Shown: piece after piece, positions 6,760-52,535 of the stretch
Position numbering within the stretch: the first letter of the stretch is position 1
Layout of the letters: every line of letters starts with the position of its first letter
Origin: Planctomycetota bacterium
GTDB taxonomy: Bacteria; Planctomycetota; UBA1135
Length of the DNA: 64,000 bases
Reading direction: 5' to 3'
Assembly (NCBI GenBank): GCA_045047305.1
Contig: JASFYO010000005.1
Location: 297-64,296 of the forward strand
Program-made: the position numbers and the translations under genes
Notes under the pieces: model-generated
The model's database searches: none
Seen by the model: the letters and a program-made list of their open reading frames with translations, nothing else
Told to the model about the DNA's origin: nothing

Positions 6760-6832
6760 TTGGGGGTCCGTCGGACGCAATAAGATTAACCATCCCGAGC
6801 TTGGCTGGCAAACCAAGACATGGGCATGTGAA

Positions 6833-7552
6833 ATGTGGCAAAATCTAGGTATGGCCCCTGCCGACCAACACGACACCCTGCGCCGCCTAGCTGCGGCCTG
6901 CATCCTGGAAGGGATGGAGCAAGCAGGGCTGGCATCCATCCCGCCGTCGGCCCTCCCTCCCTCCACCGCCGCCACGCCCCAAGTGCAAGGGGCGGGCTTA
7001 AATGAGCGGATTGAGGCCTGTCGTAATTGCCCGCTGGGCACCACGCGCAATTGTGCAGTACCTGGAGAAGGCGCCAAGAAAGCACGCATCATGTTCGTTG
7101 GCGAAGCTCCGGACGAAGAAGATGATCGGAGTGGACGCCCAATCGTGGGCCCTGCAGGGGAGCTGCTCGACAAAATCGTTCGTAGTGGGATGGGCCTTAA
7201 AAGGGAAGTCGTCTTTATCACCAACATCTTGAAATGCCGGCCGCCTGAAAGCCGCGCCCCACTGGCAAGCGAAGTAGACGCGTGCACCCCTTTTCTAGAG
7301 GAGCAGATTTCTGCTATCCAGCCTGATTTGATCATCGCCCTCGGCCAAAATGCGGCGCAACACCTTCTTAGGACCGAGGACAGCCTAAGTCGCCTACGTG
7401 GAGAGCTGCAGAGGCGCCCTCAGGGCGGCCCTCCGGTGCTTGTCACCTACCATCCTGCCTACCTTCTGCGCCATCCAGAGCAAAAAAGGGCTTGCTGGGA
7501 AGATATTCAGCTCGGTTTGCGCCATCTTGGGCTACCCCAACCAGGCGCATAG
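6833..7552 (+). CDS. Uracil-DNA glycosylase, family 4
   Basis: Motifs CRNCPL, GEGAKKARIMFVGEAPDEEDDRSGRPIVGPAGELL, NILKCRPPESR and TYHPAYLLR are the family-4 UDG signatures. The start may instead be ATG 6851. Confidence 0.9.
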   Translation: MWQNLGMAPADQHDTLRRLAAACILEGMEQAGLASIPPSALPPSTAATPQVQGAGLNERIEACRNCPLGTTRNCAVPGEGAKKARIMFVGEAPDEEDDRSGRPIVGPAGELLDKIVRSGMGLKREVVFITNILKCRPPESRAPLASEVDACTPFLEEQISAIQPDLIIALGQNAAQHLLRTEDSLSRLRGELQRRPQGGPPVLVTYHPAYLLRHPEQKRACWEDIQLGLRHLGLPQPGA

Positions 7553-7618: not shown

Positions 7619-7646
7619 TTGACGCGTAGCCGCGCGTCGCCATAAT
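7619..7646 (+). promoter_or_regulatory. Sigma70-like promoter upstream of secretin gene 1
   Basis: TTGACG (7619-7624), a 16-nt spacer, then CATAAT (7641-7646). Each hexamer matches consensus at 5 of 6 positions. It sits about 130 nt upstream of ATG 7778, in the longest + strand intergenic gap. Whether this organism uses the E. coli consensus is unknown. Confidence 0.45.
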
Positions 7647-7777
7647 CTCTGGTCGGCTTTGGCTCCTGCCTCGCCGGTCGGCTCAGGCTTTGGCCTAAGC
7701 TCCTACTTTCCCGCATACTTGCGAACATCTCCCGAGTCTCGGGATTGTCCCCGCTACCGCCCTTCCCAATCAACTCG

Positions 7778-10351
7778 ATGCGTAACGACAGGAAGAATCT
7801 GTTGCTCCCTCTTCTGCTTCTCGCCGGCTGCTACAGCCCTGAAGCTGAGATTCACGATGGTGAATTTGTACGAAACGATGCAGCGCCTCAACTCGCTGAA
7901 TCGGATTCCATGCAGGAGCCCGAAATGTCCACCTCCTCTGCCGCCGACGCCATTCAGGTGAAGGCGCAGAAGAATGCTCTCCTTGCAAACTCCTACGTCG
8001 GCCTCGGCAACGATGCGTTCGAGCGTGGCGACTATGAGGGCTCTGCCATTCAATATGCAGAAGCAAACCGCCTTGATGCAACCAACATCGCTGCACGCGA
8101 TGGTTTGCGTCGCGCGCAGACTGCGATGGCTGGCAACACTTACGATATCGATTCTGCTGAGAACGTCATCCAGAACGAAGCTCTGCGTCAGAGTGCCAAC
8201 CGGATGCGCGTAGAAGGATTAGTACGCGATGGCGATCGCGCCATGGGCCAAGCTGCTTTCTCGACTGCGGTCGACAAGTACACCATGGCTGTGCAGGCAC
8301 TGAACTACAGCCCAAACATGGCTTACGGTTTCCTCGACACCAACATGGTGCAGGGCAAGCTGGATGAAGCCACATCCGCGCGTAACTCTTCGGAAGCTTC
8401 CGCGCGCAATGCGCAAGCCATGGCCGCCGATGCAGAAGCTCGCGAAGCCTTGCAAGCCCGCGCCGATTACAGCGCGAACCGCATCGCATCCTTCATGGGA
8501 CGCGCGAATGAGCAGTTCATGTCTGGCTTCCCGGATCGAGCAGTCACCACGCTGGATCAACTTCTACGCATCGACCCACGCAATCCTGAAGCTACCGAGC
8601 TGCGCAGCATTGCAGTCGAAGCCGCCTTGCGCAACCGTCAGGATCAAACCGCTGACGACTTCCGCGAAGGCTGGCAGCGCACCTTTGAAGAAATGCGCAC
8701 CTTGACCGTGCCGCCAAATGGCAGCATCGAGTTCGACCTGGACCACTGGGCCAAAATCGCTGATCGCGCACCTCTCGACATGGTGGAGACCACCACCGAG
8801 ATGGACGCCGTCGAGGCAAGCATTCGCTACTCGCTGGCGAATACCCGCATCATCCCAAACTTTGATGATGCACTCGAAGAGATCGTGCCGAACCTACAAG
8901 CGTTCGCCAAGGTGAACTTCGTGATCACTCGCGAAGTGCGTGATGACATCGACGAGGACGTCAAGACCATCCGCATGTCGTTCAAGAACGATATGCCTGT
9001 GGACCGCATCCTCAGCATCATGGAAGACCTGATGGGCGGCGAAGTCAAGTTCATCGTCAAGAACGGCTCGGTCTACGTGGTCACCGCGGAACAAGCTGAT
9101 GCGGATTCCATCACCCGTCAATACGACGTTCGCGACATCATTCGTCCGATTAAGGACTTCCCTCTTCCTGAGTACAACTTGATTCCGTCCGGCGGCATCG
9201 AGGCAGACGAAGAGGAACTTCCTGAATCGGAAGCGACCATCCTTACCGAGGACGACCTCATCGCCACCATCACCGAGTCGATTGACCCGGATTCCTGGGA
9301 TGGCGAAACCCACTCGGTGAACATCGAGAACGGGACCCTGATTGTGCACCACAGTCCAGAGGTTCAAGCTGAGATCGCCAACATGCTGGTTGACCTGCGC
9401 GTGCCTGCCAACATCATGGTGGACATCAAGGTTCGCTTCTTGCGCGTTGAAGATAGCTTCCTCGAAGACATCGGCGTGGACTTCCGCGGCCTCGGCAACG
9501 ACTCCACCGCTGGCTCCGCTGGCAAAGGAGATGAACTGGTCTTCGACGACTTTGGCTCGGATGCAGGCTCTCCTGGAAACCCAGGCACCCTTGGAACCGG
9601 CACCGATGCTGGCTTCAACTTCAGGGAGGCAAGTGACGACCTCAACATTCTTGCACGCTCGGAAAACCTGTACGACACCTCCCTCGGTGACGACGCCATC
9701 CTCACCAACTCTGGTGGTCTGGCACTGCAGTACACCTGGCTAGACGATGCGCAGCTGGAGATGATCCTCCGCGCAGTGAAGAAGTCGAAGCGCTCGGAGT
9801 TGGTCATCGAGCCTAGCTTGATGGTTTACAACACTGCTCGGGCAAACCTGGTGGTCGCAAACCAAGTCTCCTACGTCTCGGACTTCGATGTCGAGATTGC
9901 ATCTTCGGCCTCGATTGCCGACCCCATCGTGCAAGTCGCCAACGACGGCGTCTACCTCGATGTGCGTCCAGTCGTGACCGCTGACCGTCGTTTTGTGTGG
10001 ATCGACGTACGCCCAACCGTGGCAAACCTTTTACGTCCAATCCCAACCTTGCAGACCTCCCTCGGTGTTGGTTCGCCTGTAACCCTGATGCTGCCTCAAC
10101 TTGAGCTGCAGAAGGTGCGCACGCGTGTCATCTTGCCAGATGGCGGAACCCTGATGCTTGGTGGCATGAAAATCTTGGAAGAGCAGGAAATGGATTCTGG
10201 TATTCCTTACCTGAACCAAATCCCAGTTCTTTCCTTCTTCTTCTCGCGCAAAGGCACTTACGAGACTTACCAGAAGTTAGTCATCCTGCTCACGGCAAAT
10301 ATCATCCTGATGGATGAGCTTGAGCCTGGTCAAACTCCTACTGGTTACTAG
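7778..10351 (+). CDS. Secretin-family outer-membrane channel made as a lipoprotein, with a TPR-rich N-terminal region (liposecretin 1)
   Basis: The start is set to ATG 7778. MRNDRKNLLLPLLLLAGC-YSPE is a signal peptide plus lipobox. TPR-like units include GNDAFERGDYEGSAIQYAEANRLD and QFMSGFPDRAVTTLDQLLRIDPRNPEA. The C-terminus is a classic secretin domain (RVILPDGGTLMLGGMK...DSGIPYLNQIPVLSFFFSRKG...LVILLTANII). Confidence 0.85.
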   Translation: MRNDRKNLLLPLLLLAGCYSPEAEIHDGEFVRNDAAPQLAESDSMQEPEMSTSSAADAIQVKAQKNALLANSYVGLGNDAFERGDYEGSAIQYAEANRLDATNIAARDGLRRAQTAMAGNTYDIDSAENVIQNEALRQSANRMRVEGLVRDGDRAMGQAAFSTAVDKYTMAVQALNYSPNMAYGFLDTNMVQGKLDEATSARNSSEASARNAQAMAADAEAREALQARADYSANRIASFMGRANEQFMSGFPDRAVTTLDQLLRIDPRNPEATELRSIAVEAALRNRQDQTADDFREGWQRTFEEMRTLTVPPNGSIEFDLDHWAKIADRAPLDMVETTTEMDAVEASIRYSLANTRIIPNFDDALEEIVPNLQAFAKVNFVITREVRDDIDEDVKTIRMSFKNDMPVDRILSIMEDLMGGEVKFIVKNGSVYVVTAEQADADSITRQYDVRDIIRPIKDFPLPEYNLIPSGGIEADEEELPESEATILTEDDLIATITESIDPDSWDGETHSVNIENGTLIVHHSPEVQAEIANMLVDLRVPANIMVDIKVRFLRVEDSFLEDIGVDFRGLGNDSTAGSAGKGDELVFDDFGSDAGSPGNPGTLGTGTDAGFNFREASDDLNILARSENLYDTSLGDDAILTNSGGLALQYTWLDDAQLEMILRAVKKSKRSELVIEPSLMVYNTARANLVVANQVSYVSDFDVEIASSASIADPIVQVANDGVYLDVRPVVTADRRFVWIDVRPTVANLLRPIPTLQTSLGVGSPVTLMLPQLELQKVRTRVILPDGGTLMLGGMKILEEQEMDSGIPYLNQIPVLSFFFSRKGTYETYQKLVILLTANIILMDELEPGQTPTGY

Positions 10352-10362
10352 ACAGTGAAACC

Positions 10363-10400
10363 GAACGGCCGAGGGTGGATAGACACCCTCGGCCGTTTCC
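10363..10400 (+). terminator. Strong hairpin (terminator or attenuator) after secretin gene 1
   Basis: GAACGGCCGAGGGTG-GATAGA-CACCCTCGGCCGTTT has a 14-bp perfect stem and starts 12 nt after the stop. The tail is TTTCC only, so the U-tract is weak. Confidence 0.55.
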
Positions 10401-10442
10401 ATTACACCCAGGTCATTTGGGCCTGCATTTGAGAGAGACCGC

Positions 10443-13292
10443 ATGATTGCACTCAGCTCCGTACTCCTTCTCAGCCTTCTCGTCCCGTTCCAGCAAGGCG
10501 GCGCCAGCACCATGGCCCGCAAGAACGCAGAGGCTGCCCGCGCCATTAACCGTGAGTTTGGCCTTAACTTTTGGGCTGAAAAGCTTATCACTCGCTCCCT
10601 GGCTGAAGCCAAGACTGCCGACGATCGGGCAGAATTGTTGCTCGCCCGCTGCGATGTGTTGCTGCATACGGCAAGCTCCAAGGTCAACGATAATGAAAAG
10701 CTCCCAGCGCTTGGTGAAGCGGGTGAAGCTTATGTCGCCTACCTAGCTACTAGTCCTGGCGGTAACCTTGAAACCAAGGCGCAAAGTAATCTTGGTGCGG
10801 TTGCCAGTCAATACGGCATCACCTTGGTGCGCATGATTGAGAACGACGCCATCCGTGGTGACGAGCGCGATGCCGCAGTGGCAACCGCGGAGAGTATCTT
10901 CAAAACTTCCCTGAAGGGCATGAATGCAATCATTGATTGGTGGGAAGCACTTCCTACCGACAACGCGCAAAAGAACCAAAACCAATTTACGGTCTATTAC
11001 CCTTCCGTGTTCAACCGTGCTTTGGTTTACCTGTACTGGGCACAGCTTTACCCAGCCGGTTCCATTGAACGCGACCAACGTGCCAAACAATCGGTTGATT
11101 ACTTTGAGAAGTTTGCGATTGGTGCTCCATTCCTCCCCTCGCAACGCGCGTACAAAGCTTTAGCTGACTGCTACCGGGTGCTTGGACAAATGGAAGATGC
11201 ATTCGATTATTACGAATACGTCACCAGTAACACCAAGGACTTGATTGAACAGGAAGGCGAGGATCTTGATCCAGCATTCATCGATCAATTGCACGATGTG
11301 ATTCAGGCCTCTGACTTTGGCATGTTGCAATTATTGCGCGCAACCGGACAGACGGAACTGTTCTGGGAAACCGTGGACAACTTCAACGCTTGGGTAGATG
11401 AAGAACGCATCGAACTCTCCCGAAGTGGGTATGAGCTCTCTTTGGTGGTTGCGAACCAAATGATTGACGAAGGACGCATTGGCGAAGCGATCACGCTTGC
11501 TGATGAAGTCGCCAAGGCCAACGAACGCAGCACCTTACGTTTGCGCGCCAACTCAGTTATGAGTTCTGCAATCGCGCTTGCTCCACCCGACGCCGACATC
11601 CCATTAGACGTGCTCTTCGGTTCTGCTGAGGGCGCTTACTTCACCAAAGATTACGCCTCCGCGATTGATGGTTTCCGCATGCTCATCCCCCGCCTGGCGG
11701 GTTCGCGTGAAGCAGACATCTACGGCGGAAAAGCCTATTACTTACTGGGTATTTGCTGGGCTCGCACCGGGCAACCTCTACTGGCTGCTGTAACCCACCA
11801 AATCGGCTACGAGGATTACCCTGACGACGAAGAGTATGCGGTAAAGAACGCAAAGAAATGGCAAGGGCATACCGCCAACTTCTTTAAGCGCGCAAGCTCT
11901 GACCCCGAGATTCAGGCCTGGAATGACCTCGCGATTGAGGCTGTTGTCATCACCGACGGTGGCGGTCACGATCTGGAATGGCAACAAGCCAAGACCATGA
12001 ACACTTTGGCACAAAAATCTGCTGCCAAAAACCCGAGAGCAGCACCAGGCAGCAACGAGGCCAAGGCAATCGTGAACGCTTACAGCAAAGCGATTTTGGC
12101 CTTCAAAAAGGTGAAACCGGAAAGCGCAAACTACGAGAAGTCCCTGCTAAAAGCCGCAGTATGTGAATACGAAAGTATTCGCTTCGAACCTTCCGCTGCC
12201 GGCCGCTCGCTTGCAGCCCTGAAGTTCTATCTTGAGGATTACATCGCCAATCCGGCAAATGCTCCGAAGGATGGGGCACAGCGCGCCGCGCGCCGTTCTA
12301 CCGCGCCCGAAGCCGTCTCGTACCTTGGACGCACCTACCGCGCCTTGGCAAAAGCTGGCGATGACTCGGCCTGGCAAAAGGTAATCGACACCTACGCGGA
12401 CATGCTCGATCGCTTTCCGGACCAGCCCGACTTGGGCTACCTCGGCATGGCCTACCGCACGGAAGCATTCGTACGGCAGGGCAAAATCACCGAAGCAGAA
12501 GCGGAATACCAGTCCATGTTGGATATCTCTGCTTCGCCAAACCGACTATCAGTCGCCGCCTACTCTTTATTCCTTCACTTCAAAGCAGAAGATGAAAATG
12601 CAGTCGATGCAACAGCTAGCGGCGAAAATCGTTCGAAGGAAGCAGAGTACCTTTCAGCTTACAACTCCTTCTCTACCACCAAACGCTGGGCCAACCTTTT
12701 GGGTGAAGCTGATTTGTGGATGCAACTTGGCAATTACGAGAAGTCGGCTGCTTTGTTCCAGCTAGTGCTAGACAAGTACGCTACCGGCAAATCCTTCACC
12801 GAGGCCTTCCGCTTTAAGACTCAGATTGGCTTGGTGGAATCCTTGCTCCAACTGCGTCGTACCGGAGAGGCGATTCCTTTGGTCAATAAGCTCTACGAGC
12901 AAAGTCCAAAAAACTTGCGCGTACGCTCCGCTGTGGTCAAAGTGAAGGCTGGATTCTTGGTCTACAACGGCATCCAAGTCCTGGAGGTCCCAGGAGAAGG
13001 AACGCCAGAGGCTCTGGCACTAGCAGCAACCATGGCATCGGAACTGATTAAAGTTGCCAAGTTTGAAGCCGACCGCCAACAACCATCGATCAACCCATAC
13101 GCTTACGCCCCTTGGTGGGAAGCGAAACTCAATCAGGGTTATGTACTTTACCAACAAGGTAAATCAGATCCTGCGCAAGCTGGTAAACACACCAAGATGG
13201 TTTCCAGCCTTCAAAGACAAGCACCTGACCTCGGCGAGTCGATTGCCGGCAAACGCATGTCACAAAGTCTCCTCTGGCTCCTGAATCACTAG
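10443..13292 (+). CDS. Large secreted TPR-repeat protein (949 aa)
   Basis: N-terminal signal-like segment MIALSSVLLLSLLVPFQQGGAS. The remainder is all-helical with many TPR-like A/Y/L periodicities (e.g. AYKALADCYRVLGQMEDAFDYYEYV, GKAYYLLGICWARTGQPLLA, ADLWMQLGNYEKSAALFQLVLDKY). Confidence 0.8.
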   Translation: MIALSSVLLLSLLVPFQQGGASTMARKNAEAARAINREFGLNFWAEKLITRSLAEAKTADDRAELLLARCDVLLHTASSKVNDNEKLPALGEAGEAYVAYLATSPGGNLETKAQSNLGAVASQYGITLVRMIENDAIRGDERDAAVATAESIFKTSLKGMNAIIDWWEALPTDNAQKNQNQFTVYYPSVFNRALVYLYWAQLYPAGSIERDQRAKQSVDYFEKFAIGAPFLPSQRAYKALADCYRVLGQMEDAFDYYEYVTSNTKDLIEQEGEDLDPAFIDQLHDVIQASDFGMLQLLRATGQTELFWETVDNFNAWVDEERIELSRSGYELSLVVANQMIDEGRIGEAITLADEVAKANERSTLRLRANSVMSSAIALAPPDADIPLDVLFGSAEGAYFTKDYASAIDGFRMLIPRLAGSREADIYGGKAYYLLGICWARTGQPLLAAVTHQIGYEDYPDDEEYAVKNAKKWQGHTANFFKRASSDPEIQAWNDLAIEAVVITDGGGHDLEWQQAKTMNTLAQKSAAKNPRAAPGSNEAKAIVNAYSKAILAFKKVKPESANYEKSLLKAAVCEYESIRFEPSAAGRSLAALKFYLEDYIANPANAPKDGAQRAARRSTAPEAVSYLGRTYRALAKAGDDSAWQKVIDTYADMLDRFPDQPDLGYLGMAYRTEAFVRQGKITEAEAEYQSMLDISASPNRLSVAAYSLFLHFKAEDENAVDATASGENRSKEAEYLSAYNSFSTTKRWANLLGEADLWMQLGNYEKSAALFQLVLDKYATGKSFTEAFRFKTQIGLVESLLQLRRTGEAIPLVNKLYEQSPKNLRVRSAVVKVKAGFLVYNGIQVLEVPGEGTPEALALAATMASELIKVAKFEADRQQPSINPYAYAPWWEAKLNQGYVLYQQGKSDPAQAGKHTKMVSSLQRQAPDLGESIAGKRMSQSLLWLLNH

Positions 13293-13296
13293 ACCG

Positions 13297-14367
13297 ATGC
13301 TCCTAACCTGCGCACTTCTGTTTCCGATGTTGATGCCTGCGGCTCTCCCGCAGAGTCGAATTGCACGCCTTGATGGCGGCTACACCACTGGCAAGCTCAC
13401 CGCTGCTGGTTTGGAATCCGTAACTCTTGAAGTCGGCCAAGGCGCATCCCGCGACTTCCCGTCCAACCAAATTATTTCGCTTAAGCCTGGCCCCCTTCCG
13501 GAACTTGTTTCCAAAGGTGAAGTCTTCCTTAAGGATCTCGATTTCCAAAATGCCACCAACTCCTTCGATGCGGCAAGTAGTGAAGATGGAGACTTTTGGC
13601 TCGCACCCTATGCGAGCTTGCGCCACGCGGAAGCTCTCCTAGCTTGGGCACAACAAGACCCAGCCCGTGCAAGTGATGCTGCCCGCGCCTTCCGCAGCTG
13701 GTCCGACGCAAACCCGGATAGCTACTGGTTACCACGTGCTCAAATGGGAGCAGCCAAGGCCATGGCTATGGCTGGCGACGTGGATGGCGCAACCTCGTTG
13801 ATGCAAAAGCTGTCCGATACTGCCTTCGAGAGAAATCTCGGCCGCCACGTCGAACTGCAAGTCAATTTAGTGCGCTGCGAGGCATTCCTGCTTGGCGGCC
13901 AAGCAGAAGTGGCAGAAGCACGTCTGCGCGATCTCGTGGTCAAACTCGACAGCGCTGTCACTGACCCCAAAGCTGCTGACGGAGCCAAGGCTCTATATCT
14001 TGCGATGAGTTCACGCGCCAAGATTCGCCTCGGCGACGCCATCACACAGAAGGATGGAGCGCGCACCGCAAGTAGCTACTGGCAAGGCTTAGCTTCCGAC
14101 CGTAACGCAACCGCCGATGTCCGCGCTGCAGCCTGGATTGGAATCGCCTCTGCAGCACGCGAAAGCGGCAACCTGCGTCAAGCCCAGCTGCAGCTCGCGA
14201 AGGTCATCGCCACCCTGCCAGCCTCAGATGAGGTTATGGCACATGCCCTTTACGACTTGGGTGAAGTCTCCAAAGCCTTAGACAATAACCCAATCCCTGG
14301 TGAAACCTATCATCAGCGTCTGCGTGAGCAGTACCCAAACACCAGCTGGGCCGCCAAAGTCCGCTGA
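13297..14367 (+). CDS. Secreted TPR protein with a CpoB/YbgF-like C-terminus (356 aa)
   Basis: It starts 4 nt after the previous stop. The signal peptide is MLLTCALLFPMLMPAALP. Helical repeats end in HALYDLGEVSKALDNNPIPGETYHQRLREQYPNTSWAAKV, the 'yP.s..A..A' ending typical of YbgF/BamD-type TPRs. Confidence 0.7.
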   Translation: MLLTCALLFPMLMPAALPQSRIARLDGGYTTGKLTAAGLESVTLEVGQGASRDFPSNQIISLKPGPLPELVSKGEVFLKDLDFQNATNSFDAASSEDGDFWLAPYASLRHAEALLAWAQQDPARASDAARAFRSWSDANPDSYWLPRAQMGAAKAMAMAGDVDGATSLMQKLSDTAFERNLGRHVELQVNLVRCEAFLLGGQAEVAEARLRDLVVKLDSAVTDPKAADGAKALYLAMSSRAKIRLGDAITQKDGARTASSYWQGLASDRNATADVRAAAWIGIASAARESGNLRQAQLQLAKVIATLPASDEVMAHALYDLGEVSKALDNNPIPGETYHQRLREQYPNTSWAAKVR

Positions 14368-14436
14368 TCCCCGGAGGCCCAGTCTGGGCCCTTCCTGATG
14401 GCATCCGTCCTAAGGCCTTCCCCGACGGCGGTTTGC

Positions 14437-14445
14437 TGCTAGAAT
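14437..14445 (+). promoter_or_regulatory. Possible extended -10 promoter element upstream of the exbB/tolQ-like gene
   Basis: TGcTAGAAT (TG at 14437-38, TAGAAT at 14440-45) lies about 50 nt upstream of ATG 14495. If real, it argues for the 14495 start. No convincing -35 element. Confidence 0.3.
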
Positions 14446-14458
14446 CTTTCCCTTCCCG

Positions 14459-15214
14459 GTGGAATCAACACCGAAACCCAACGCGTCCATAGCAATGTCC
14501 CGACTACGTTACCTCATGCTGGCTTCGACCAGCACCCTTATTTTTGCTGGCACCATCTTCGCTCAAGACGGTGAAGAAAATGTCAAAGAAGGAGGCGCCA
14601 ACTTCATGGAAGCCATTCAGAATGCAGGTGCTATTGGTTACCTCATCATTCTGATGTCCGTGGTGGCCATGGCTCTCATCATTGAGCACTTCATGACTCT
14701 CAAGCGCGAGAAACTCGCTCCACCCGAGGTCATCGACGAAATCGAAGAGCTCTTCCAGGATGGCAACTACCAGGAAGCCCTTGAAGCTTGTGAGGCAAAC
14801 CCTTGCTTCTTCTCCAACGTAACGGCCGCAGGCATCCGCAAGCTTGGCAACCCATTCGGCGCCATCGAGAAGTCCATCGAAGAGATGGAAGACGAGGAAA
14901 GCGTAAAGCTTCAGCAGAAGATTGGCTGGCTCTCCTTGATCTCCGGTATCGGCCCCATGATGGGACTGTTCGGCACGGTAACGGGAATGGTGGGCGCGTT
15001 CGCGACCATCGGTTCTTCCGGTGCTGGCGGCGTGAACCCAGCTGACTTCGCAGCTGACATCTCTTTGGCACTGATGACCACCGTACTTGGTCTGACCGTG
15101 GCAATCCCGACCACCGCGTTCTACGCCTTCTTCCGTAACAAGGTCTCTTTGGTGACCATGGAGATTAGTGCTGTGGTTGAGGACATGTTCGAGCGTTTCC
15201 GCGCTACCGAGTAA
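14459..15214 (+). CDS. MotA/TolQ/ExbB-family proton channel
   Basis: GLFGTVTGMVGAF and ADISLALMTTVLGLTVAIPTTAFYAFF are the conserved TM2/TM3 stator motifs. There is an N-terminal signal-like segment. The likely true start is ATG 14495 (MSRLRYLMLASTSTLIFAG). Confidence 0.9.
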   Translation: MESTPKPNASIAMSRLRYLMLASTSTLIFAGTIFAQDGEENVKEGGANFMEAIQNAGAIGYLIILMSVVAMALIIEHFMTLKREKLAPPEVIDEIEELFQDGNYQEALEACEANPCFFSNVTAAGIRKLGNPFGAIEKSIEEMEDEESVKLQQKIGWLSLISGIGPMMGLFGTVTGMVGAFATIGSSGAGGVNPADFAADISLALMTTVLGLTVAIPTTAFYAFFRNKVSLVTMEISAVVEDMFERFRATE

Positions 15215-15236
15215 AGCGCAATGGGCTCATTGCTAA

Positions 15237-15262
15237 GGAATGGGGTGTTACCACCCCATTCC
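15237..15262 (+). promoter_or_regulatory. Intercistronic stem-loop between the exbB-like and exbD-like genes
   Basis: GGAATGGGGTG-TTAC-CACCCCATTCC is a perfect 11-bp stem with a 4-nt loop and no U-tract. It lies 23 nt after the stop and 34 nt before the next ATG. Confidence 0.45.
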
Positions 15263-15295
15263 GAACCCACTAGTCTGAACAAGTAAGCAAATAAC

Positions 15296-15919
15296 ATGGC
15301 AAGACGACGCACCGCAGAGACCGAGATCGAGATCGACATGACCCCCATGATCGATATGACTTTCCTCTTAATCATCTTCTTCATTATCGTGAACGATATG
15401 TCGCAGAAGGATTTGGAAGAGCTCAAACTCCCGATCGCAATGGAGGCTGGTCACGATGACCCGCCAGAACGCCGTCAGGTACTCAACGTACGTTGGTTCC
15501 CGGCAGGTGGGGTGACGGATTACGTCAAGAAGCAGTATGCCGAAATGGGCATCGGCATCCCCGATGACATGGAGTGGTCGGACATCGTGTGGAAAGGAAA
15601 TATCCTTTACTACCCAAACATGGACACTGGTGGTCGTACCGACCCCATCCGCAAAGGCCGTCCGGACTACTACTGGCAGCTAGCGCAGACGATGGAGTTG
15701 GAATGGGTCCCCTACTTTGAGAAGAAGATGGATGACAAACTCGGCAAATTACTGCCGGATGACCCGGTACTTCTTCGCGCTGACCGCAACACCCCATTCA
15801 AGTACCTGCAGAAGATTATGGAAGTCTGCACGCGGGAGAACATCTTGATTTGGAAAGTGCAGTTCGCTGCATCTGAGGATCCAGACGTGGTTGCTGCTCG
15901 CGAAGCCGCTAAGAAATAA
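15296..15919 (+). CDS. ExbD/TolR-family protein 1 (long form, 207 aa)
   Basis: IEIDMTPMIDMTFLLIIFFII is the canonical ExbD/TolR N-terminal TM segment with the conserved Asp. The periplasmic part is longer than in typical ExbD proteins of about 135 aa. Confidence 0.85.
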   Translation: MARRRTAETEIEIDMTPMIDMTFLLIIFFIIVNDMSQKDLEELKLPIAMEAGHDDPPERRQVLNVRWFPAGGVTDYVKKQYAEMGIGIPDDMEWSDIVWKGNILYYPNMDTGGRTDPIRKGRPDYYWQLAQTMELEWVPYFEKKMDDKLGKLLPDDPVLLRADRNTPFKYLQKIMEVCTRENILIWKVQFAASEDPDVVAAREAAKK

Positions 15920-15933
15920 GCAAGGTAAAGAAC

Positions 15934-16449
15934 ATGAGTAAAAAGAAGAAGAAGTTTGAAGAGATTAAGCCAGACATGACGCCAATGATTGACGTCACCT
16001 TCTTGCTGCTGATTTTCTTCATTGTGACTCTGAAGTTCAAGGTTCTCGAAGGCCGCCTAGACGCCGCTCTTCCTAAGGATCGTGGTACCAGCACCTCGGA
16101 AGCGGAAGAAATCGAAAAGCTCGACATCATGCTTTTCGTGGCAAATCCTGGCGAATTGGTGCCAGACAAGGACAATGAATACCTGAAGGTTTTCTCGGGC
16201 CGAAAGATTCGCGTCGAGATTGGTTCGCAGAAGTGGTATTACGATCCCTTCAACATTGATGATCCGGAAAACCCTCTTCCAGACCTAACTCGGTTCTTGC
16301 AGAATCCTGAATGGGACAAAGAGGAAACTCCAGTTTCGCTCGATGCTCGCAAAGGAATTGTTTACGGAGATGTCGTCGTCATGCTTGATGTGATTGTCCG
16401 TGAGAAATTCAAAAAGGTCTCCTTCGCCGGAACCTTCGAGCAAGACTGA
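15934..16449 (+). CDS. ExbD/TolR-family protein 2 (171 aa)
   Basis: IKPDMTPMIDVTFLLLIFFIV is the same TM motif, so this is a paralogue of the preceding gene. The gap to it is 14 nt. Confidence 0.85.
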   Translation: MSKKKKKFEEIKPDMTPMIDVTFLLLIFFIVTLKFKVLEGRLDAALPKDRGTSTSEAEEIEKLDIMLFVANPGELVPDKDNEYLKVFSGRKIRVEIGSQKWYYDPFNIDDPENPLPDLTRFLQNPEWDKEETPVSLDARKGIVYGDVVVMLDVIVREKFKKVSFAGTFEQD

Positions 16450-16477
16450 GTTTCAGAACTAGGTAAATCCGCACGGG

Positions 16478-18049
16478 ATGAATGATCTCCCCCCTGTGCT
16501 CCCGGACTCCTCCTCGCCTAGCGGGGAGGAGTCCTCTCATGCGGAGCCATTGCGTCAGATTCTGCATCAAGCTGCAGATCAAGTCGCCGACTATTTGAGC
16601 AGCCTTGAAAGCAGGCCCATCTTCCCGGCATCCCCTACTGCACCAACCGGCCCCTTGGTACCTGAAGAAGGTGAAAACCTAAGTGAAGTTTTCACTGATT
16701 CCGCACAGTGGGCGATTGAAAATGCTGTCCATGTAGGCCATCCTGGTTATGTCGGGCACATGGATTCCGGAGTTGCCGTGGCTGGCATCTTGGGTGATTT
16801 CCTGGCCTCGGCGTTAAACCAAAACCTATTGGCCTTTGAATTAGCTCCAGGAGCCACTTTGCTAGAAAAACGCTTGCTGCGTTTCTTCGCCGACGAAGCG
16901 GGATTACCAACCACCGCTGGCGGCATTTTTACCACTGGCGGAACCACGGCAAATCTCACCGGACTATTGCTCGCACGTGATGCAGCAAATCAAAGCGTCA
17001 CTTACACAGGGTTAACCTCGGCGCCGACGCTGTGCGTTTTGGCAAGCGCCGATGCGCATTACTCCATTGCCAAAGCCTGTGCTGTTTTAGGCCTAGGCAG
17101 TGATCAAGTTTGCCCGGTTGCAGTTGCAGGACCGCAACGTCGAATGGATACAAACGATTTGCTACGTGCTTTTCAACAAGCACAAAAAGATGGCAAGCAA
17201 CCGATTGCTGTTGTGGCTACCGCAGGCACCACAAGCTGCGGTGCAGTGGATCCAATTCCGCAAATCGCAGACTTCTGTCAACAACATGGTTTGTGGTTGC
17301 ACGTCGATGCCGCTCATGGAGGCGCCTTGCTATTACATCGCAAGGCGAAAAAACGGCTCGCTGGAATCGAACGCGCAGACTCCATAACGCTAGATCCACA
17401 TAAGTGGCTGTACGCTCCGAAAAGTGCCGGCATTCTTTTGGTGCGTGATGAAGCGAACCTAGTCACCGCGAATTACGATGCCCCCTATCTAGACCGTTTT
17501 CAAGAACACGGAGAGGCCATCCCGCTTAGCCAAGGCCGTCGCGCTCTGGATGGCAGCCGACGCTTTGATGCACTCAAGGTTTGGATGACTCTGCGCCACT
17601 TCGGGCGCAACGGTTTGGAGAAAATTCTTGATGGCCGCTTGGCGCTCTCCAAAGAACTTCATCTACACCTCGAACAGCACCCTTTCTTCGAGCCCATGCA
17701 CCAGCCAGACCTTAATGTTGTGGTCTTCCGCCCGCGCGATGCCGCACATTGGCCTGCGATTGCAGACGCCCACCGCCAGTTAGAGGCTGAGGGGCGCTTC
17801 TGGACCTCGTACACCCGTCTTGACGGCCAACAGTGCCATCGGATGGTGTTGATTAACCCGGCTACCACCGCAGCCGATTTGAAGCAAATATTGGACCACC
17901 TAAGCGTCGCCCATCAAACACTTTGGGGCAATTCTAGTCATCCCCAACATCTGTCCCCAAAAGGGCGTAGCGAGGCTCCTCAGGCGCTGCTACATTCTTC
18001 CCCTGACTATCGTCCAAAAGACGGTAGCCATGTGGCTGTAGGTGACTAA
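16478..18049 (+). CDS. Pyridoxal-phosphate-dependent group II amino-acid decarboxylase
   Basis: HPGYVGHM, FTTGGTTANL, HVDAAHGG and the PLP-lysine context SITLDPHKWLYAPKSAG fit the group II decarboxylase family (DOPA/tyrosine/diaminobutyrate type). The substrate cannot be read from the sequence. Confidence 0.85.
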   Translation: MNDLPPVLPDSSSPSGEESSHAEPLRQILHQAADQVADYLSSLESRPIFPASPTAPTGPLVPEEGENLSEVFTDSAQWAIENAVHVGHPGYVGHMDSGVAVAGILGDFLASALNQNLLAFELAPGATLLEKRLLRFFADEAGLPTTAGGIFTTGGTTANLTGLLLARDAANQSVTYTGLTSAPTLCVLASADAHYSIAKACAVLGLGSDQVCPVAVAGPQRRMDTNDLLRAFQQAQKDGKQPIAVVATAGTTSCGAVDPIPQIADFCQQHGLWLHVDAAHGGALLLHRKAKKRLAGIERADSITLDPHKWLYAPKSAGILLVRDEANLVTANYDAPYLDRFQEHGEAIPLSQGRRALDGSRRFDALKVWMTLRHFGRNGLEKILDGRLALSKELHLHLEQHPFFEPMHQPDLNVVVFRPRDAAHWPAIADAHRQLEAEGRFWTSYTRLDGQQCHRMVLINPATTAADLKQILDHLSVAHQTLWGNSSHPQHLSPKGRSEAPQALLHSSPDYRPKDGSHVAVGD

Positions 18050-18088
18050 CCATAGCCTCAGTCCCAGCTCGGATCCCAAGCTTTCCCC

Positions 18089-20755
18089 ATGAACAGAACC
18101 CTGAAATCGGCTTCTTGCCTTAGCCTGACCCTCGCATTGTTTGCGGTGGGCTGTGCTTCACCCGACTCCTCAACACCCGAGGAAATGGTCGCCTCCAACG
18201 CCACTGGCTCCAGCAATGAACCTTTGTTCATGGATGCCACAGGCGGCGTTCAAGAACCTGGTTCGCAAGAGCCGGGAACCCAAGGCGTCATGGAGCAAGG
18301 CATCCAAGACTACTCATTGCGCGGCCAAAAGATTGCTCTTCTGGTACGCGAGCACGTTATGTCGGCGCGGATGGCCTATGCCGACGCCCGCCTGTTAGAA
18401 GCCGAGAACGAGTTGCTTGCGGCACTCAAGCTCGACCCAACGGCAACCGAAGCCCGTGGTCTTCTTGAGCAAGTGCAAGTGGCGCTCGGCAAAGCGAACA
18501 GTGACATCACTGGTTCCTCCGCCGATGTCTACCAGCAGACCTTGGCCCGCGCTGAGCGTCTGAAGGCAGACGCCGAAGCAAACCTCCAAGCTGGTCGTAC
18601 CTACCTTATGGAAGGTGACTACGACGTCGCAATCGGCAAGCTGCGTTTGTCCCGCAGCATCATCATGGGTTCTGACCTGCGCATCGATTGGGGTGGCATG
18701 GAAGCAGAGGTCAACGCTCTGCTCGAGCAGGCGGAAGCCAACCGTGATCTTGCGGTAGCCGCACAACGCGATGAAGCTTCACGCACCACCTTTAACGCGC
18801 TGCAGCAGAAACGTCAGATGGAACTCGAGCGGCGCAACTTGCGCCTCGATGCCATGCTCACTGATGCGATTGCATCCTTCGATAACTACGAGTTCGATCG
18901 CGCAATTGGCTTGTGCGAGGACATCTTGCGCGAAGACCCACTCAACGGTCACGCACGCGAGTTGATTGACAGCTCGCAGAAGGCACGTCACAACAACTTG
19001 GAGGAGTCTTGGGTCCAGAAGCGTTCCGAGCGCTACAACAGCTGGCTTGCCGATATTGCAGAAGCTCGCGTGCTCAGCACCGAGATCATGCAGATGCCAG
19101 ACCCGGCACATTGGGCGCAGCTCTCCAAACTGCGGGAACGCTTCCGCGTCACCACCATTGATGATGCCGACTCCGAGCTCAACATGGGCCTGATGACCGA
19201 CATCACCAACCAGCGCATCCCGAGCCTCATCTTCGAAGGTGAGACCTCGCTCGATACCGTGGTGGACCAACTGCGTACCTTTACCAGCATCCCGTTCGTA
19301 GTCACTCCAGATGCCATCGACGCCGTCGATAGCGAAGGTATTGAGTTCAACCTCAACATGACTCACGAACTGAGCGTCATGAACGCCCTCAACATCATCA
19401 CCGATGTTGCCGGTGAGGGTGTGACTTACACCTTCCGTCACGGGGTGGTTTACATCACCTCCACCGAGAAGGCGAACGCGAACATGATTCTGCGTCTGCA
19501 CGATGTGCGTGACCTTACTGCCATGATCGTCGATCACGCTGGTCCAAAGATTCAGGAGATTCGCCTTCCAGATGGCGAGTACGACGACGAAGACGGCCCA
19601 CAGTTTGGTGGCGTTGTTGGAGAAGCCGTGCCGTTGATGGATCCAGATAACCTCGTCACCTTAGTGCAGCAAGGCGTCAGCCCTGCAAGCTGGGAAAACG
19701 ATGGTGCTTCGATTCAAGCATTGAATGGTCAACTGGTGGTACGCACCACCCCTGAGATCCACCAAGAGATCCAGGACTTCCTTGGCGGCTTCCGTCGCTA
19801 CACCTCTTCCATGGTGCACATTGAGGCTAAGTTCCTCACCATCACCAAGGATTACCTTCAGGAAATCGGTGTAGATTGGCGCGGTAATGGTGGCAACTCT
19901 TCCCCACTTGAGCTCACCAACCTCGACGACGTCACCTCTGGCTTCGATGACAATGCTTCCCTTGCATTAGACAACAATGGGCCTGGACTTCCTTCTGGTG
20001 CAGACTCCAACCCATCTGCGGGTGCCTACTTCAACGATTTCAGCGACGGCGACTTCCGTGCGCGTACCGAGAACATCCTCGGTTCTTACGGTTCACGCCT
20101 TGGAACTGCTGGTGGACTTGCCATGCAGCTCTCCTTCCTGGATGACCTGCAGTACAGCTTGATTCTCAACGCTGTTGAGAAGAACTCGCACGCACAGGAG
20201 CTCACCTCCACCATCCTTTCGGCGCAGAACACCCAGCGTGCCTACGCCACGATGCTAAACCAGATCACCTATGTGCAGGACTTCGATGTGGAGGTCGCGC
20301 TTGCGTCCTTCATCGCAGACCCAATCATCGGCGTGATCTCCGATGGCATCGTTCTGGATGTGCGCCCAACCATCGCGCAAAACCGTAAGTACATTACTTT
20401 GGAACTGCGCCCAACGGTGGCCACCATTGTGCAGCCAATCCAGGAGTTCACCTCCTCCCTGGCAGCACTAACCACGCCGATTACCATCCAACTCCCGGAG
20501 TTGCAGGTCTCTTCTGCGAACACCACTGTGGTGGTTCCAGACGGCGGCACCGTGGTGATTGGTGGACTCAAGAAGCTGTTCAACATTGATCAGCGCTCTG
20601 AGATTCCTTTCCTCTCCGATATCCCTGTCCTCAGTCTCCTGTTCAAGACTGAAGGTGAGGCGGAAGAGAATAAGGATGTCATCCTGATGATCCGCGCGAC
20701 CATCATCGATGCCAACGAAATGCAGGACGGCCTCGACGCCCAACTAGGCAACTAG
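18089..20755 (+). CDS. Secretin-family outer-membrane channel made as a lipoprotein, with a TPR-rich N-terminal region (liposecretin 2)
   Basis: MNRTLKSASCLSLTLALFAVGC-ASPD is a lipoprotein signal. TPR-like units include GRTYLMEGDYDVAIGKL and SFDNYEFDRAIGLCEDILREDPLNGHA. The secretin C-terminus is VVVPDGGTVVIGGLKK...SEIPFLSDIPVLSLLFKTEG...VILMIRATII. It aligns by eye block by block with 7778..10351. Confidence 0.85.
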   Translation: MNRTLKSASCLSLTLALFAVGCASPDSSTPEEMVASNATGSSNEPLFMDATGGVQEPGSQEPGTQGVMEQGIQDYSLRGQKIALLVREHVMSARMAYADARLLEAENELLAALKLDPTATEARGLLEQVQVALGKANSDITGSSADVYQQTLARAERLKADAEANLQAGRTYLMEGDYDVAIGKLRLSRSIIMGSDLRIDWGGMEAEVNALLEQAEANRDLAVAAQRDEASRTTFNALQQKRQMELERRNLRLDAMLTDAIASFDNYEFDRAIGLCEDILREDPLNGHARELIDSSQKARHNNLEESWVQKRSERYNSWLADIAEARVLSTEIMQMPDPAHWAQLSKLRERFRVTTIDDADSELNMGLMTDITNQRIPSLIFEGETSLDTVVDQLRTFTSIPFVVTPDAIDAVDSEGIEFNLNMTHELSVMNALNIITDVAGEGVTYTFRHGVVYITSTEKANANMILRLHDVRDLTAMIVDHAGPKIQEIRLPDGEYDDEDGPQFGGVVGEAVPLMDPDNLVTLVQQGVSPASWENDGASIQALNGQLVVRTTPEIHQEIQDFLGGFRRYTSSMVHIEAKFLTITKDYLQEIGVDWRGNGGNSSPLELTNLDDVTSGFDDNASLALDNNGPGLPSGADSNPSAGAYFNDFSDGDFRARTENILGSYGSRLGTAGGLAMQLSFLDDLQYSLILNAVEKNSHAQELTSTILSAQNTQRAYATMLNQITYVQDFDVEVALASFIADPIIGVISDGIVLDVRPTIAQNRKYITLELRPTVATIVQPIQEFTSSLAALTTPITIQLPELQVSSANTTVVVPDGGTVVIGGLKKLFNIDQRSEIPFLSDIPVLSLLFKTEGEAEENKDVILMIRATIIDANEMQDGLDAQLGN

Positions 20756-20769
20756 GTCTCCCGTAAACG

Positions 20770-20813
20770 AAAAGAGCCGCTCTCCTATCAAGGAGGGCGG
20801 CTCTTCTTTTTTG
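20770..20813. terminator. Bidirectional rho-independent terminator between convergent genes
   Basis: AAAGAGCCGCTCTCC-TATCAA-GGAGGGCGGCTCTT is followed by CTTTTTTGG on the + strand. On the minus strand, TCTTTTCGTTT follows the hairpin. It separates secretin 2 (+) from the HAD gene (-). Confidence 0.65.
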
Positions 20814-20826
20814 GAGTCGTTAAGTG

Positions 20827-21579
20827 TTAGCTGCGGTTACGGCGCTCTAATGGAATACCATATTCCGTATCCAACAGCCCACGCAAAGCCACAAAATCAT
20901 CAAGGATATGATTCGGCTCGGTGAGTGGCGGAGTTTGGGAGCGCTTACCGTTACCGCGAATCCATACCGTGCGTAAACCAGCTGCATTGGCAGGATCGAC
21001 ATCATGGAATGGATGGTCCCCCACGTGCATCACTTGATCCGGGGCAACGCCTGCAACTTCTGCACACTGCGCATAAAGCCGTGGATTGGACTTGGCAATA
21101 CCAACCGCATTGGTGATGAACAACAGTTTTTGATCAATGAAGCGGTCCACGCCCAAGCGCAGGAGCTTCTCCATTTGCTTGTGAACCAATCCCGCGCTGA
21201 TCACACCCAAACGTAGGTCGGTGGTTGCAAGATCGCGCAACAGTGCTTCGGCCTCTGGACGGATTTTCAGCTTCTGCCATTTGGCATTGTGATAGGCAAT
21301 CACGCCAGCAACGACCAACAAATCTGGATTAGCACCCGCGGTGGCACTCTGCGGCAAACGCTTCAGCAAACGGTTGTAGTGGTGGTCATCGTTGGAACCG
21401 AATTCGGCAACCACTTGAGAAAGCTCATCGAGAACTGGCCCGACCTCAGCTTTGAGGCCACGCGCAATCATGGCTTCCACCGCTTTGGTGCGGGCATCGA
21501 CCACGAAATCGGAGGTCCCGAAAAGGGTGTCATCGATGTCTAGAAAGATGACCTTGAGCTTTGGAGAGGATGCACTCAC
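20827..21579 (-). CDS. HAD-superfamily hydrolase
   Basis: The motif I sequence is VIFLDIDDTLF, followed by GVISAG and a late VGDHPFHDV acidic motif. It overlaps the upstream ABC ATPase gene by 4 nt. Confidence 0.8.
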   Translation of the reverse strand: MSASSPKLKVIFLDIDDTLFGTSDFVVDARTKAVEAMIARGLKAEVGPVLDELSQVVAEFGSNDDHHYNRLLKRLPQSATAGANPDLLVVAGVIAYHNAKWQKLKIRPEAEALLRDLATTDLRLGVISAGLVHKQMEKLLRLGVDRFIDQKLLFITNAVGIAKSNPRLYAQCAEVAGVAPDQVMHVGDHPFHDVDPANAAGLRTVWIRGNGKRSQTPPLTEPNHILDDFVALRGLLDTEYGIPLERRNRS

Positions 21580-23255: not shown

Positions 23256-23271
23256 GCGTTATCCTCTGGGC

Positions 23272-32856: not shown

Positions 32857-32876
32857 GGCACTCCGTCATCCAAACG

Positions 32877-50573: not shown

Positions 50574-50593
50574 GGAGATGGGATTATGGAATC

Positions 50594-51589: not shown

Positions 51590-51631
51590 TCCCTGATTGT
51601 GTCGCGGCCAAGGACCGATTCCAAGCCCAGA

Positions 51632-52471: not shown

Positions 52472-52477
52472 AGCGTG

Positions 52478-52521: not shown

Positions 52522-52535
52522 GTAACTTCAGAGCT

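Follow-up and report, generated by a model that had tools for sequence, protein, structure and literature searches.

A Planctomycetota gene block with two lipoprotein secretins and an ExbB/ExbD stator as a candidate trans-envelope apparatus

Introduction

How might a secretin in the outer membrane be opened or driven when no ATPase is encoded beside it? This question is raised by a block of eight genes in a 64,000-nucleotide stretch of contig JASFYO010000005.1 from a Planctomycetota bacterium (the whole stretch is hereafter called the window). In this block, two secretin genes (SEC1 and SEC2) enclose genes for an ExbB/TolQ-type proton channel, two ExbD/TolR paralogues (ExbD-a and ExbD-b), two secreted proteins with tetratricopeptide repeat (TPR)-like parts (TPR949 and TPR356), and a pyridoxal phosphate (PLP)-dependent decarboxylase. 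To our knowledge, every characterised secretin is paired with an ATP-driven inner-membrane assembly, namely that of type II secretion systems (T2SS), the type IV pilus (T4P), the type III secretion system (T3SS), or phage export. Likewise, we know of no characterised ExbB/TolQ-type stator that acts other than through a transducer of the TonB, TolA, GltG, or GldM type. Full-text searches of the literature found no description of a secretin-ExbB/ExbD cluster.

The occurrence of a secretin pair together with an ExbB/ExbD motor and scaffolds, without an ATPase, suggests at the level of sequence an undescribed way to power or gate a secretin. We propose that seven of the genes, the decarboxylase gene being left aside, may encode one lineage-specific trans-envelope apparatus in which a stator powered by the proton motive force (PMF) would be coupled via periplasmic scaffolds to the secretins; this is a tentative reading, to which we give slightly less than an even chance. 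If such a coupling is real, the block would be a candidate answer to the question of how some Planctomycetota move large molecules across the outer membrane.

Organization of the block

The open reading frame (ORF) listing, the translations, and the Pfam and NCBIfam searches gave eight genes, all on the + strand at positions 7778-20755, in the order SEC1, TPR949, TPR356, ExbB, ExbD-a, ExbD-b, decarboxylase, and SEC2, with intergenic gaps of 4-91 nucleotides (nt). Their coordinates and those of the accompanying transcription signals are collected in Table 1. Profile hidden Markov models (HMMs) confirmed the domains that the initial annotation had assigned to these eight co-directional genes. 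The block start that it gave, position 7619, is that of the promoter, and the coding sequence of SEC1 opens at 7778. The seven proteins other than the decarboxylase carry topology signals of secreted, lipoprotein, or membrane proteins; ExbB and the two ExbD proteins were the sole predicted membrane proteins of the block, and no further transmembrane protein was found in it. All parts belong to known superfamilies, and no block protein reached the NCBIfam equivalog threshold of any named system.

It had been claimed at the outset that the block lacks an ATPase, a platform protein, and a TonB/TolA partner, and indeed no such cytoplasmic machine component (ATPase or platform) and no TonB/TolA-like protein were found to be encoded there. 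Furthermore, no GspE/PilB-like or GspF/PilC-like ORF was present in the 64-kb window, and no recognisable TonB was present in the rest of it. None of the block proteins contained a Pro-rich segment, the maximum being 7 Pro per 40 residues. The GC content was even across the window, in which neither tRNA nor Rfam searches gave a match. A Zorya-like defence system was rejected, as PADLOC gave no defence-system match (e.g., Zorya ZorAB) and only weak generic PLP-fold matches for the decarboxylase.

Table 1 Genes and transcription signals of the block (positions in the window; aa, amino acids)
Feature	Position	Strand	Remarks
Sigma70-type promoter, TTGACG-16-CATAAT	7619-7646	+	Upstream of SEC1; 10/12 matches
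SEC1, lipoprotein secretin	7778-10351	+	857 aa; Secretin (PF00263) 83.1 bits, cut-off 27.5; weak TPR_11/TPR_2 matches
GC-rich hairpin just 3' of the SEC1 stop	10363-10398	+	15-bp perfect stem, no clear U-tract
TPR949, candidate periplasmic scaffold	10443-13292	+	949 aa; weak TPR matches; N-terminal signal peptide
TPR356, secreted	13297-14367	+	356 aa; signal-peptide-like N-terminus; short N-terminal region, then TPR-like part
Extended -10 TGCTAGAAT, candidate internal promoter for ExbB-ExbD-ExbD-(decarboxylase)-SEC2	14437-14445	+	
ExbB/TolQ-type proton channel	14495-15214	+	ORF opens with GTG 14459; conserved ATG 14495 likely start
ExbD-a, ExbD/TolR paralogue, enlarged periplasmic domain	15296-15919	+	ExbD (PF02472) 52.9 bits, N-terminal part only
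ExbD-b, ExbD/TolR paralogue	15934-16449	+	ExbD 58.3 bits, full length
Group II PLP-dependent decarboxylase, accessory	16478-18049	+	Pyridoxal_deC (PF00282) 232 bits, cut-off 27
SEC2, lipoprotein secretin, ancient paralogue of SEC1	18089-20755	+	888 aa; Secretin 84.6 bits
Strong stem-loop terminator, also serving the convergent HAD gene	20772-20805	.	15-bp stem with 9 GC pairs, then CTTTTTTGG (T-run)

Conservation of the gene order in relatives

Loci of relatives were obtained from three context look-ups, a scan of species-representative genomes, and a metagenome scan, and were analysed with purpose-built HMMs. Word-index protein searches with SEC2, with a TPR949 profile, and with a profile of SEC1 plus SEC2 returned only the window's own clade and unrelated secretins; the breadth of the family was shown by the metagenome scan and an exhaustive profile search. 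The window proteins were identical to those of a Planctomycetota metagenome-assembled genome (MAG). All named relatives, the deepest included, were Planctomycetota, save one MAG labelled Myxococcota by its source.

The order SEC1-TPR949-TPR356-ExbB-ExbD-ExbD-SEC2 was observed in 38 of the 47 distinct loci that spanned both secretins, and a third ExbD was scored by HMM in two of these 38 (L033 and L055). The seven-gene core persisted at secretin identities of approximately 30-37%, with the TPR949 HMM score dropping from about 1300 to about 130-300 bits. The lack of synteny that the initial annotation had named as a sign of fortuitous adjacency was thus not observed, the block being syntenic in relatives down to about 30% secretin identity. 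The median gaps were 91 nt for SEC1-TPR949, 28 nt for TPR949-TPR356, 103 nt for TPR356-ExbB, 37 nt for ExbB-ExbD-a, and 5 nt for ExbD-a-ExbD-b. The outer ones were longer, at about 295 nt between ExbD-b and SEC2 where the decarboxylase gene was absent and about 490 nt between SEC1 and its upstream neighbour, UDG. Where genes had been called and Pfam domains marked in a locus, no gene for an ATPase, a platform protein, a (pseudo)pilin, or GspC/PilP was present within ±10 kb, and no TonB/TolA-like gene was seen in the ±10-kb neighbourhoods inspected.

Divergent loci were also compared. In L020, whose secretin is 36% identical to SEC2, ExbD-b was kept upstream of SEC2 and the orientation of the HAD gene was changed; in the divergent L108, ExbD still adjoined SEC2. 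The most remote relative was L097, with a secretin of 28% identity; L103-L106 represent essentially this one locus in further assemblies. The sources of these loci were Planctomycetota of a bioreactor-sludge metagenome and additional public assemblies. A gene for a TPR-STN-secretin of 901 amino acids (aa) came first, followed by those for a 1340-aa lipoprotein, a 443-aa protein, ExbB, and then three ExbD; over about 10 kb downstream of the ExbD genes, a second secretin was absent. Their flanks were wholly different from those of the window, with an EF-hand protein upstream and a YdjY-like protein, an inositol-phosphate synthase, and an aminotransferase downstream. What is kept in the L097-type loci is the association of such a secretin with large secreted proteins and an ExbB/multi-ExbD stator, and this lineage, with its different flanks, provides the best evidence for a functional link. 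The exact sequence of an L097-type ExbD protein was found to be indexed in 163 blocks of a public assembly collection.

Characterization of SEC1 and SEC2

The C-terminal domains of both proteins scored far above the Secretin cut-off (Table 1), upholding the secretin call of the initial annotation, and the canonical C-terminal IPxLxxIPxL motif and the conserved secretin beta-domain were kept in SEC1 and SEC2 alike. Each carries a lipobox, LLLAGC in SEC1 and FAVGC in SEC2, whose Cys is invariant or nearly so in both paralogue families, as in liposecretins. In SEC1, the lipobox is followed by a disordered linker, a helical TPR-like domain, an N0-like domain, an N3-like domain, and the secretin domain. 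A profile search of the Protein Data Bank (PDB) sequences with SEC2 matched pIV, PilQ, GspD, and RcpA. None of the GspD, PilQ, MshL, and SctC equivalogs was reached, the best NCBIfam scores being 73-105 bits against cut-offs of 238-750, and the score for the Amuc_1098 equivalog was likewise far below its cut-off. Pfam STN gave faint scores, in relatives only.

SEC2 was modelled as a monomer with AlphaFold2 (AF2) from a 63-sequence alignment, giving a mean predicted local distance difference test (pLDDT) score of 67, with 80-95 in the domains. The model had a disordered linker (residues 20-69), an all-helical domain with two very long helices (66-353), alpha/beta N0-like (363-472) and N3-like (513-593) domains, and a secretin beta-domain (677-874). 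N0- and N3-like ring-building domains are thus predicted to sit before the secretin domain. With Foldseek, the model matched InvG (9e-10) and GspD (3e-8) over alignments of approximately 575-633 columns, and TPR proteins matched its N-terminal part.

SEC1 and SEC2 were 30% identical over the full length. In a neighbour-joining tree, they formed cleanly separate clades whose subtrees were mutually congruent, indicating that both the duplication and the block are older than the lineage's radiation.

The linker of SEC2 differed among loci. In the window it is acidic, disordered, and about 50 aa long, whereas in the SEC2 proteins of two deep-branching loci, L054 (8996-12397) and L085 (9191-11938), the lipobox is separated from the helical domain by a Pro-rich rod of 230-280 aa. 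This rod consists of PEPVPVP and PVKPAT repeats with 21-30% Pro and resembles TonB/TolA linkers. Two antisense ORFs were also noticed, one of 252 aa inside SEC2 (18779-19537, - strand) and one of 362 aa opposite UDG (6247-7335, - strand); the latter had no Pfam match, and both look like by-products of GC-rich coding sequence.

Characterization of ExbB and the ExbD paralogues

ExbB matched MotA_ExbB (PF01618) with 84.6 bits against a cut-off of 22.9. Its NCBIfam scores, 67.6 bits for TolQ (cut-off 221) and 50-60 bits for ExbB, were all far below the equivalog cut-offs, and it was equally distant from solved ExbB and TolQ (E 1e-8 to 5e-7). The N-terminus was signal-peptide-like and was followed by membrane segments. 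The channel identity given initially therefore stands. GTG 14459, at which the ORF opens, is probably not the real start: in five relatives the ATG at 14495 was invariant and GTG 14459 was not conserved. As TGCTAGAAT upstream was invariant as well, ExbB probably starts at 14495 with its own promoter.

Both ExbD proteins exceeded the PF02472 cut-off of 25.4 bits, and both kept the transmembrane Asp, in the motifs MIDMTF and MIDVTF (the latter in ExbD-b), which aligned to the proton-relay Asp of E. coli ExbD. In ExbD-a, a C-terminal RAD-containing motif also aligned to E. coli ExbD. The region shared by ExbD-a and ExbD-b was essentially the transmembrane segment. The TolR equivalog score was 36.7 bits against 127, and the ExbD equivalog scores were likewise far under their cut-offs.

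Characterization of TPR949 and TPR356

The AF2 model of TPR949 (pLDDT 87.7) was an all-alpha solenoid of approximately 45 helices with one beta-hairpin. Its Foldseek neighbours were the large TPR scaffolds Ctr9, Ski3, and IFT-A, and the only bacterial entry among the top 20 matches was 9hmf_K, a periplasmic scaffold of the C. jejuni flagellar motor. This likeness is to be taken as analogy and not as homology, because TPR folds match promiscuously (TM score of about 0.2). The exhaustive profile search gave 296 clusters (50% identity) among 1.84 billion representative proteins, and the full-length members among the 150 matches listed were 881-1018 aa long, nearly all 930-1018 aa. These results point to a discrete, lineage-restricted family of about 950 aa, so that neither the generic TPR protein of the initial annotation nor an assignment to GltD is supported. 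In every locus with readable neighbours, TPR949 adjoined a secretin of the SEC1/SEC2 type.

TPR356 always lay directly downstream of TPR949, with a gap of 4 nt in the window, and had no Pfam match. The label "CpoB-like" that had been attached to it proved to be a sub-threshold match: the YbgF/CpoB model (TIGR02795) gave 44.1 bits against a cut-off of 90.1, and comparison with CpoB in the PDB gave E = 0.7. Membership in the CpoB family was rejected on these grounds.

The decarboxylase and its variable slot

The initial annotation had counted the decarboxylase as part of the machine. However, its gene was present in merely 11 of the 38 full-cassette loci, all within the window's subclade, and the slot between ExbD and SEC2 was otherwise filled differently or empty: L054 and L085 had a sulfatase-like lipoprotein, L055 and L108 had a third ExbD, and elsewhere the slot was empty. 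The decarboxylase was accordingly rejected as a machine component and is regarded as an accessory passenger outside the core. Its best NCBIfam family was L-2,4-diaminobutyrate (DABA) decarboxylase NF052646, which it did not reach (284.6 bits against 900), and its nearest solved structures were 4rit, DesA 5o5c, and DABA decarboxylase 2qma. The lipoprotein found in the slot (L054 7157-8992; L085 7300-9120) has about 610 aa, with an N-terminal part like sulfatases and alkaline phosphatases and a TPR tail, as assigned by eye.

Transcription signals

The sigma70-like promoter and the closing bidirectional terminator of the initial annotation were both present (Table 1). Promoter-like sites in the region were no more numerous than expected by chance, and the promoter claim therefore rests on conservation: in five relatives the UDG-SEC1 spacer had diverged except for TTGACG-16-CATAAT, which was invariant. 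Similarly, TGCTAGAAT was invariant in five relatives, and the spacer flanking it had diverged. The SEC1-TPR949 spacer had a minimum free energy of -41.5 kcal/mol (z = -5.7 against shuffled sequences), and a hairpin of -20 kcal/mol or lower followed SEC1 in 78% of 67 distinct loci, compared with 33% of background windows; the stem sequences differed among lineages. This hairpin may act as a partial terminator or may stabilise the mRNA. A strong hairpin was also found 3' of SEC2 in 85% of the loci. The promoter, the hairpin after SEC1, and the extended -10 inside the block are all conserved across relatives, which supports the two or three transcription units proposed initially. Through the hairpin and the internal promoter, the multimeric secretins and the motor are probably expressed at different levels.

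Proposed mechanism and alternative explanations

In the apparatus that we propose, an ExbB pentamer in the inner membrane and a heteromeric ExbD-a/ExbD-b pair would turn proton flow into mechanical work. Without TonB or TolA, the enlarged periplasmic domains of the ExbD proteins would relay this work together with the two helical-repeat proteins that are secreted, and the receiver would be the membrane-distal helical N-domain and the N0 domain of two self-piloting lipo-secretins. Channel opening, or the passage of a periplasmic or extracellular macromolecule, would then depend on the PMF instead of being driven by an ATPase and a pseudopilus. We infer that the stator, the scaffolds, and the secretins are in physical contact. 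The domain calls, the tight co-directional spacing, the deep conservation of seven genes, the congruent SEC1 and SEC2 trees, the recurrence in the L097-type lineage, and the ExbD retained beside SEC2 in L020 and L108 all support this proposal. It is further supported by the lack of an ATPase, a platform protein, and a Pro-rich TonB/TolA-like protein in the block and the window, by the confident solenoid model of TPR949 and its small, block-specific family, and by the precedent of the Agl-Glt core complex.

A bolder claim is that the block represents a new class of machine, in which an ExbB/ExbD stator would open or drive a secretin via solenoid scaffolds without an ATPase, a pseudopilus, or TonB; we consider this somewhat unlikely. 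The channel could in that case be either a SEC1/SEC2 hetero-oligomer or two specialised rings, and these Planctomycetota would have a PMF-powered route for the export or import of macromolecules across the outer membrane. If the coupling is real, it would be a new solution to energy coupling at the outer membrane, with secretins joined to a stator by scaffolds alone, and would bring a new scaffold set. The gene order itself, as a deep, lineage-wide signature block with a co-inherited secretin pair and a discrete 950-aa solenoid family, offers a concrete target.

Several observations weigh against a single apparatus. The link between the stator and the secretins is drawn from gene neighbourhood alone, and the flanking genes (EngA, rSAM, and UDG upstream; HAD, ABC, and SBP5 downstream) were also syntenic in most loci, which means that the adjacency is partly plain vertical inheritance and is by itself weak evidence. 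ComEC and ComM also recurred downstream of the block where the contigs extended far enough. In nine loci, no cassette lay between SEC1 and SEC2, which were about 58 nt apart, showing that adjacency to the cassette is not obligatory. Seven of the nine group in a single derived clade that is nested among loci with the full block; L059 represents an independent second event, and L060 is unplaced. The secretins of these loci were full-length and scored as high as elsewhere, and the DNA 3' of SEC2 in one of them (L049) encoded unrelated genes; relatives of TPR949 near the cassette-less clade were found in two contexts, one 4-kb contig and one full block. In the L097-type loci, hhalign did not detect the 1340-aa and 443-aa proteins as homologues of TPR949 and TPR356. 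Outside the clade, a TPR-STN-secretin was located in an ordinary pilin/T2SSF/T2SSE cluster, and an Amuc_1098-like secretin adjoined Amuc_1100. The conserved post-SEC1 hairpin, the internal promoter, and the median ExbD-SEC2 gap of about 295 nt in loci without the decarboxylase gene fit separate transcription units. Finally, the window contains a prepilin peptidase gene (50594-51589), suggesting that pilus-type systems needing a secretin probably exist in the genome.

The main rival explanation is that the block consists of two independent modules that are neighbours by descent, namely a Ton/Tol-like energising cassette with its TonB/TolA-type partner and outer-membrane clients encoded elsewhere, and secretins that serve an ATPase-driven T4P or T2SS encoded elsewhere. 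The cassette-less loci, the synteny of the whole neighbourhood with its unrelated housekeeping genes, the hairpin after SEC1 and the promoter before ExbB, the out-of-clade TPR-secretins, and the prepilin peptidase gene can all be read in this way. Gene sets of ExbB-ExbD-ExbD plus TPR are, moreover, common in Ton clusters of other phyla. However, the association of secretin and cassette recurs in the L097-type lineage with different flanks and survives in divergent relatives in which the orientation of HAD has changed. Nor did any neighbourhood inspected (±10 kb) contain a TonB/TolA-like gene, and the small TPR949 family stands beside a secretin of the SEC1/SEC2 type wherever the neighbours are readable. 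We regard two independent modules as somewhat unlikely.

The part list also fits the Agl-Glt core complex (AglR/Q/S, GltD, GltE, and GltC; PMC3169522), and GspD/PilQ-family secretins have been reported as slime nozzles (PMC12475490). A surface machine like Glt/Nfs, in which the stator moves or organises a periplasmic TPR complex for gliding, surface-coat assembly, or slime extrusion and the secretins are outer-membrane nozzles or anchors and not protein-secretion gates, would be in keeping with the lipidated TPR-like domain that forms the N-terminal part of SEC1 and SEC2. It is an improbable explanation all the same: the TonB-like transmembrane protein of the GltG/GltJ type is absent from the block, no gene for polysaccharide synthesis or export was present in it, and among the 150 matches listed none of the full-length TPR949 family members (881-1018 aa) was near the 1218 aa of GltD.

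A Tol-Pal analogue for outer-membrane tethering or constriction, in which the stator and a CpoB-like TPR protein act on SEC1 and SEC2 as lipoproteins that serve chiefly for anchoring, the lineage being without canonical TolA, TolB, and Pal, might account for the weak YbgF/CpoB match of TPR356, for one TPR949 homologue annotated as "TolA-binding protein" by its source, for the single-copy, vertically inherited block between housekeeping genes, and for the TolA/TonB-like Pro-rich rod of SEC2 in two deep-branching loci, but it is very improbable and ranks last among the readings, because the channel domain, which an anchor would not need, is fully conserved in both secretins, the YbgF score is only 44 bits against a cut-off of 90, and neither TolB nor Pal is adjacent, the OmpA-family gene lying 29 kb off.

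Comparison with known systems

The type IX secretion system (T9SS; GldLM/PorLM, PorKN, SprA, and PorW/SprE) has an ATPase-free PMF motor that acts via periplasmic proteins and a TPR lipoprotein on a large gated outer-membrane translocon. The proposed apparatus shares this logic, and TPR356 gave a faint PorW/SprE match (E = 0.0045). However, the motor of the block is ExbB/ExbD and not GldL/GldM, a secretin takes the place of the SprA barrel, and no T9SS components were detected.

In the exporters AlgK-AlgE, BcsC, PgaA, and PelB, a periplasmic TPR domain is attached to an outer-membrane exopolysaccharide channel. The block differs from these TPR-porin systems in that it lacks synthase, glycosyltransferase, and polymer-modifying genes, and its channel is a secretin and not a 16-18-strand barrel.

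Like the Ton and Tol-Pal systems, the block encodes an ExbB/TolQ channel, ExbD/TolR proteins with the proton-relay Asp, and a TPR protein with a faint resemblance to CpoB. A further likeness to Ton is that the candidate target has an STN/N0-type N-terminal domain, a fold that TonB-dependent receptors also have in their signalling domain. In contrast, TonB, TolA, TolB, Pal, and a TonB-dependent barrel are absent from the block, there are two or three ExbD, and the outer-membrane partner would be a secretin.

SEC1 and SEC2 share with the secretins of T2SS, T4P, T3SS, and phage export the secretin domain, the N0/N3-like domains, and the matches to InvG, GspD, PilQ, and pIV. They differ from known secretins in the helical TPR-like domain of approximately 290 aa between the lipid anchor and N0 and in being two co-inherited paralogues; compared with those of T2SS, T4P, and T3SS, their equivalog scores are far below the cut-offs, and ATPase, platform, and pilin neighbours are missing in the loci with called genes. 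HxcQ carries an N-terminal lipid anchor, and in this respect SEC1 and SEC2 resemble self-piloting liposecretins of the HxcQ type. HxcQ is cited in PMC12475490, where GspD-type secretins are described as the slime nozzles of gliding myxobacteria and cyanobacteria.

In the Agl-Glt core complex of Myxococcus and relatives, a single TolQ-like protein and two TolR-like ones are combined with the large secreted TPR proteins GltD and GltE and with GltC, an outer-membrane lipoprotein with TPRs (PMC3169522). The block resembles Agl-Glt/Nfs (AglR, AglQ, AglS, GltC, GltD, GltE, and GltG) in having the same parts, including one very large and one mid-sized secreted TPR protein, in one cluster without an ATPase, a likeness of architecture only. 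Agl-Glt has a TonB-like transducer, GltG/GltJ, and the block has none. Moreover, the outer-membrane TPR lipoprotein of the block is fused to a full secretin and occurs in two copies, and TPR949 forms its own family (about 950 aa), beyond which the profile search detected no relative.

PflA and PflB of Campylobacter and Helicobacter are described in two reports as large periplasmic TPR proteins that position stator units of the MotA/ExbB family (PMC12222027, PMC12054838). The likeness of TPR949 to 9hmf_K is one of analogy here too, and the block has no flagellar context.

Surroundings of the block

In several divergent lineages (L046, L047, L052, L070, L093, and others), the HAD gene lay directly 3' of SEC2 and shared its strand, at a distance of only a few nt in several loci; the window's clade has it inverted, so that the two genes converge. 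Originally, the HAD hydrolase gene may have closed the operon.

Genes related to nucleic acids or nucleotides are found around the block: UDG upstream, and downstream an HAD phosphatase, the deoxynucleotidase NT5C, ComEC, and ComM, followed by DHH/DHHA1 (RecJ-like) and TatD. The coordinates recorded for this set are 6833-7552, 20827-21579, 26557-27180, 30682-34475, 40054-41058, and 46453-47229. UDG, HAD, ComEC, and ComM hold their position in many relatives. Such surroundings could reflect DNA uptake or salvage through the secretins, or coincidence.

Farther downstream, positions 49884-62502 of the - strand contain an OmpA-family gene, the prepilin peptidase (A24), a 279-aa lipoprotein, and then genes for three predicted lipoproteins of giant size (1197, 1054, and 1071 aa). 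The second and third of these are paralogues with 37% identity, and the giant lipoproteins gave weak Big_5 matches and no NCBIfam match. These genes may belong to a separate cell-surface system.

Closer to the block, the ORFs at 21576-23255 (- strand, a fused double ABC ATPase) and 23125-24813 (+ strand, the divergent SBP_bac_5 gene) overlap by about 130 nt, and relatives have the ATPase split over two genes. The overlap indicates that the true start of one or both ORFs lies further in.

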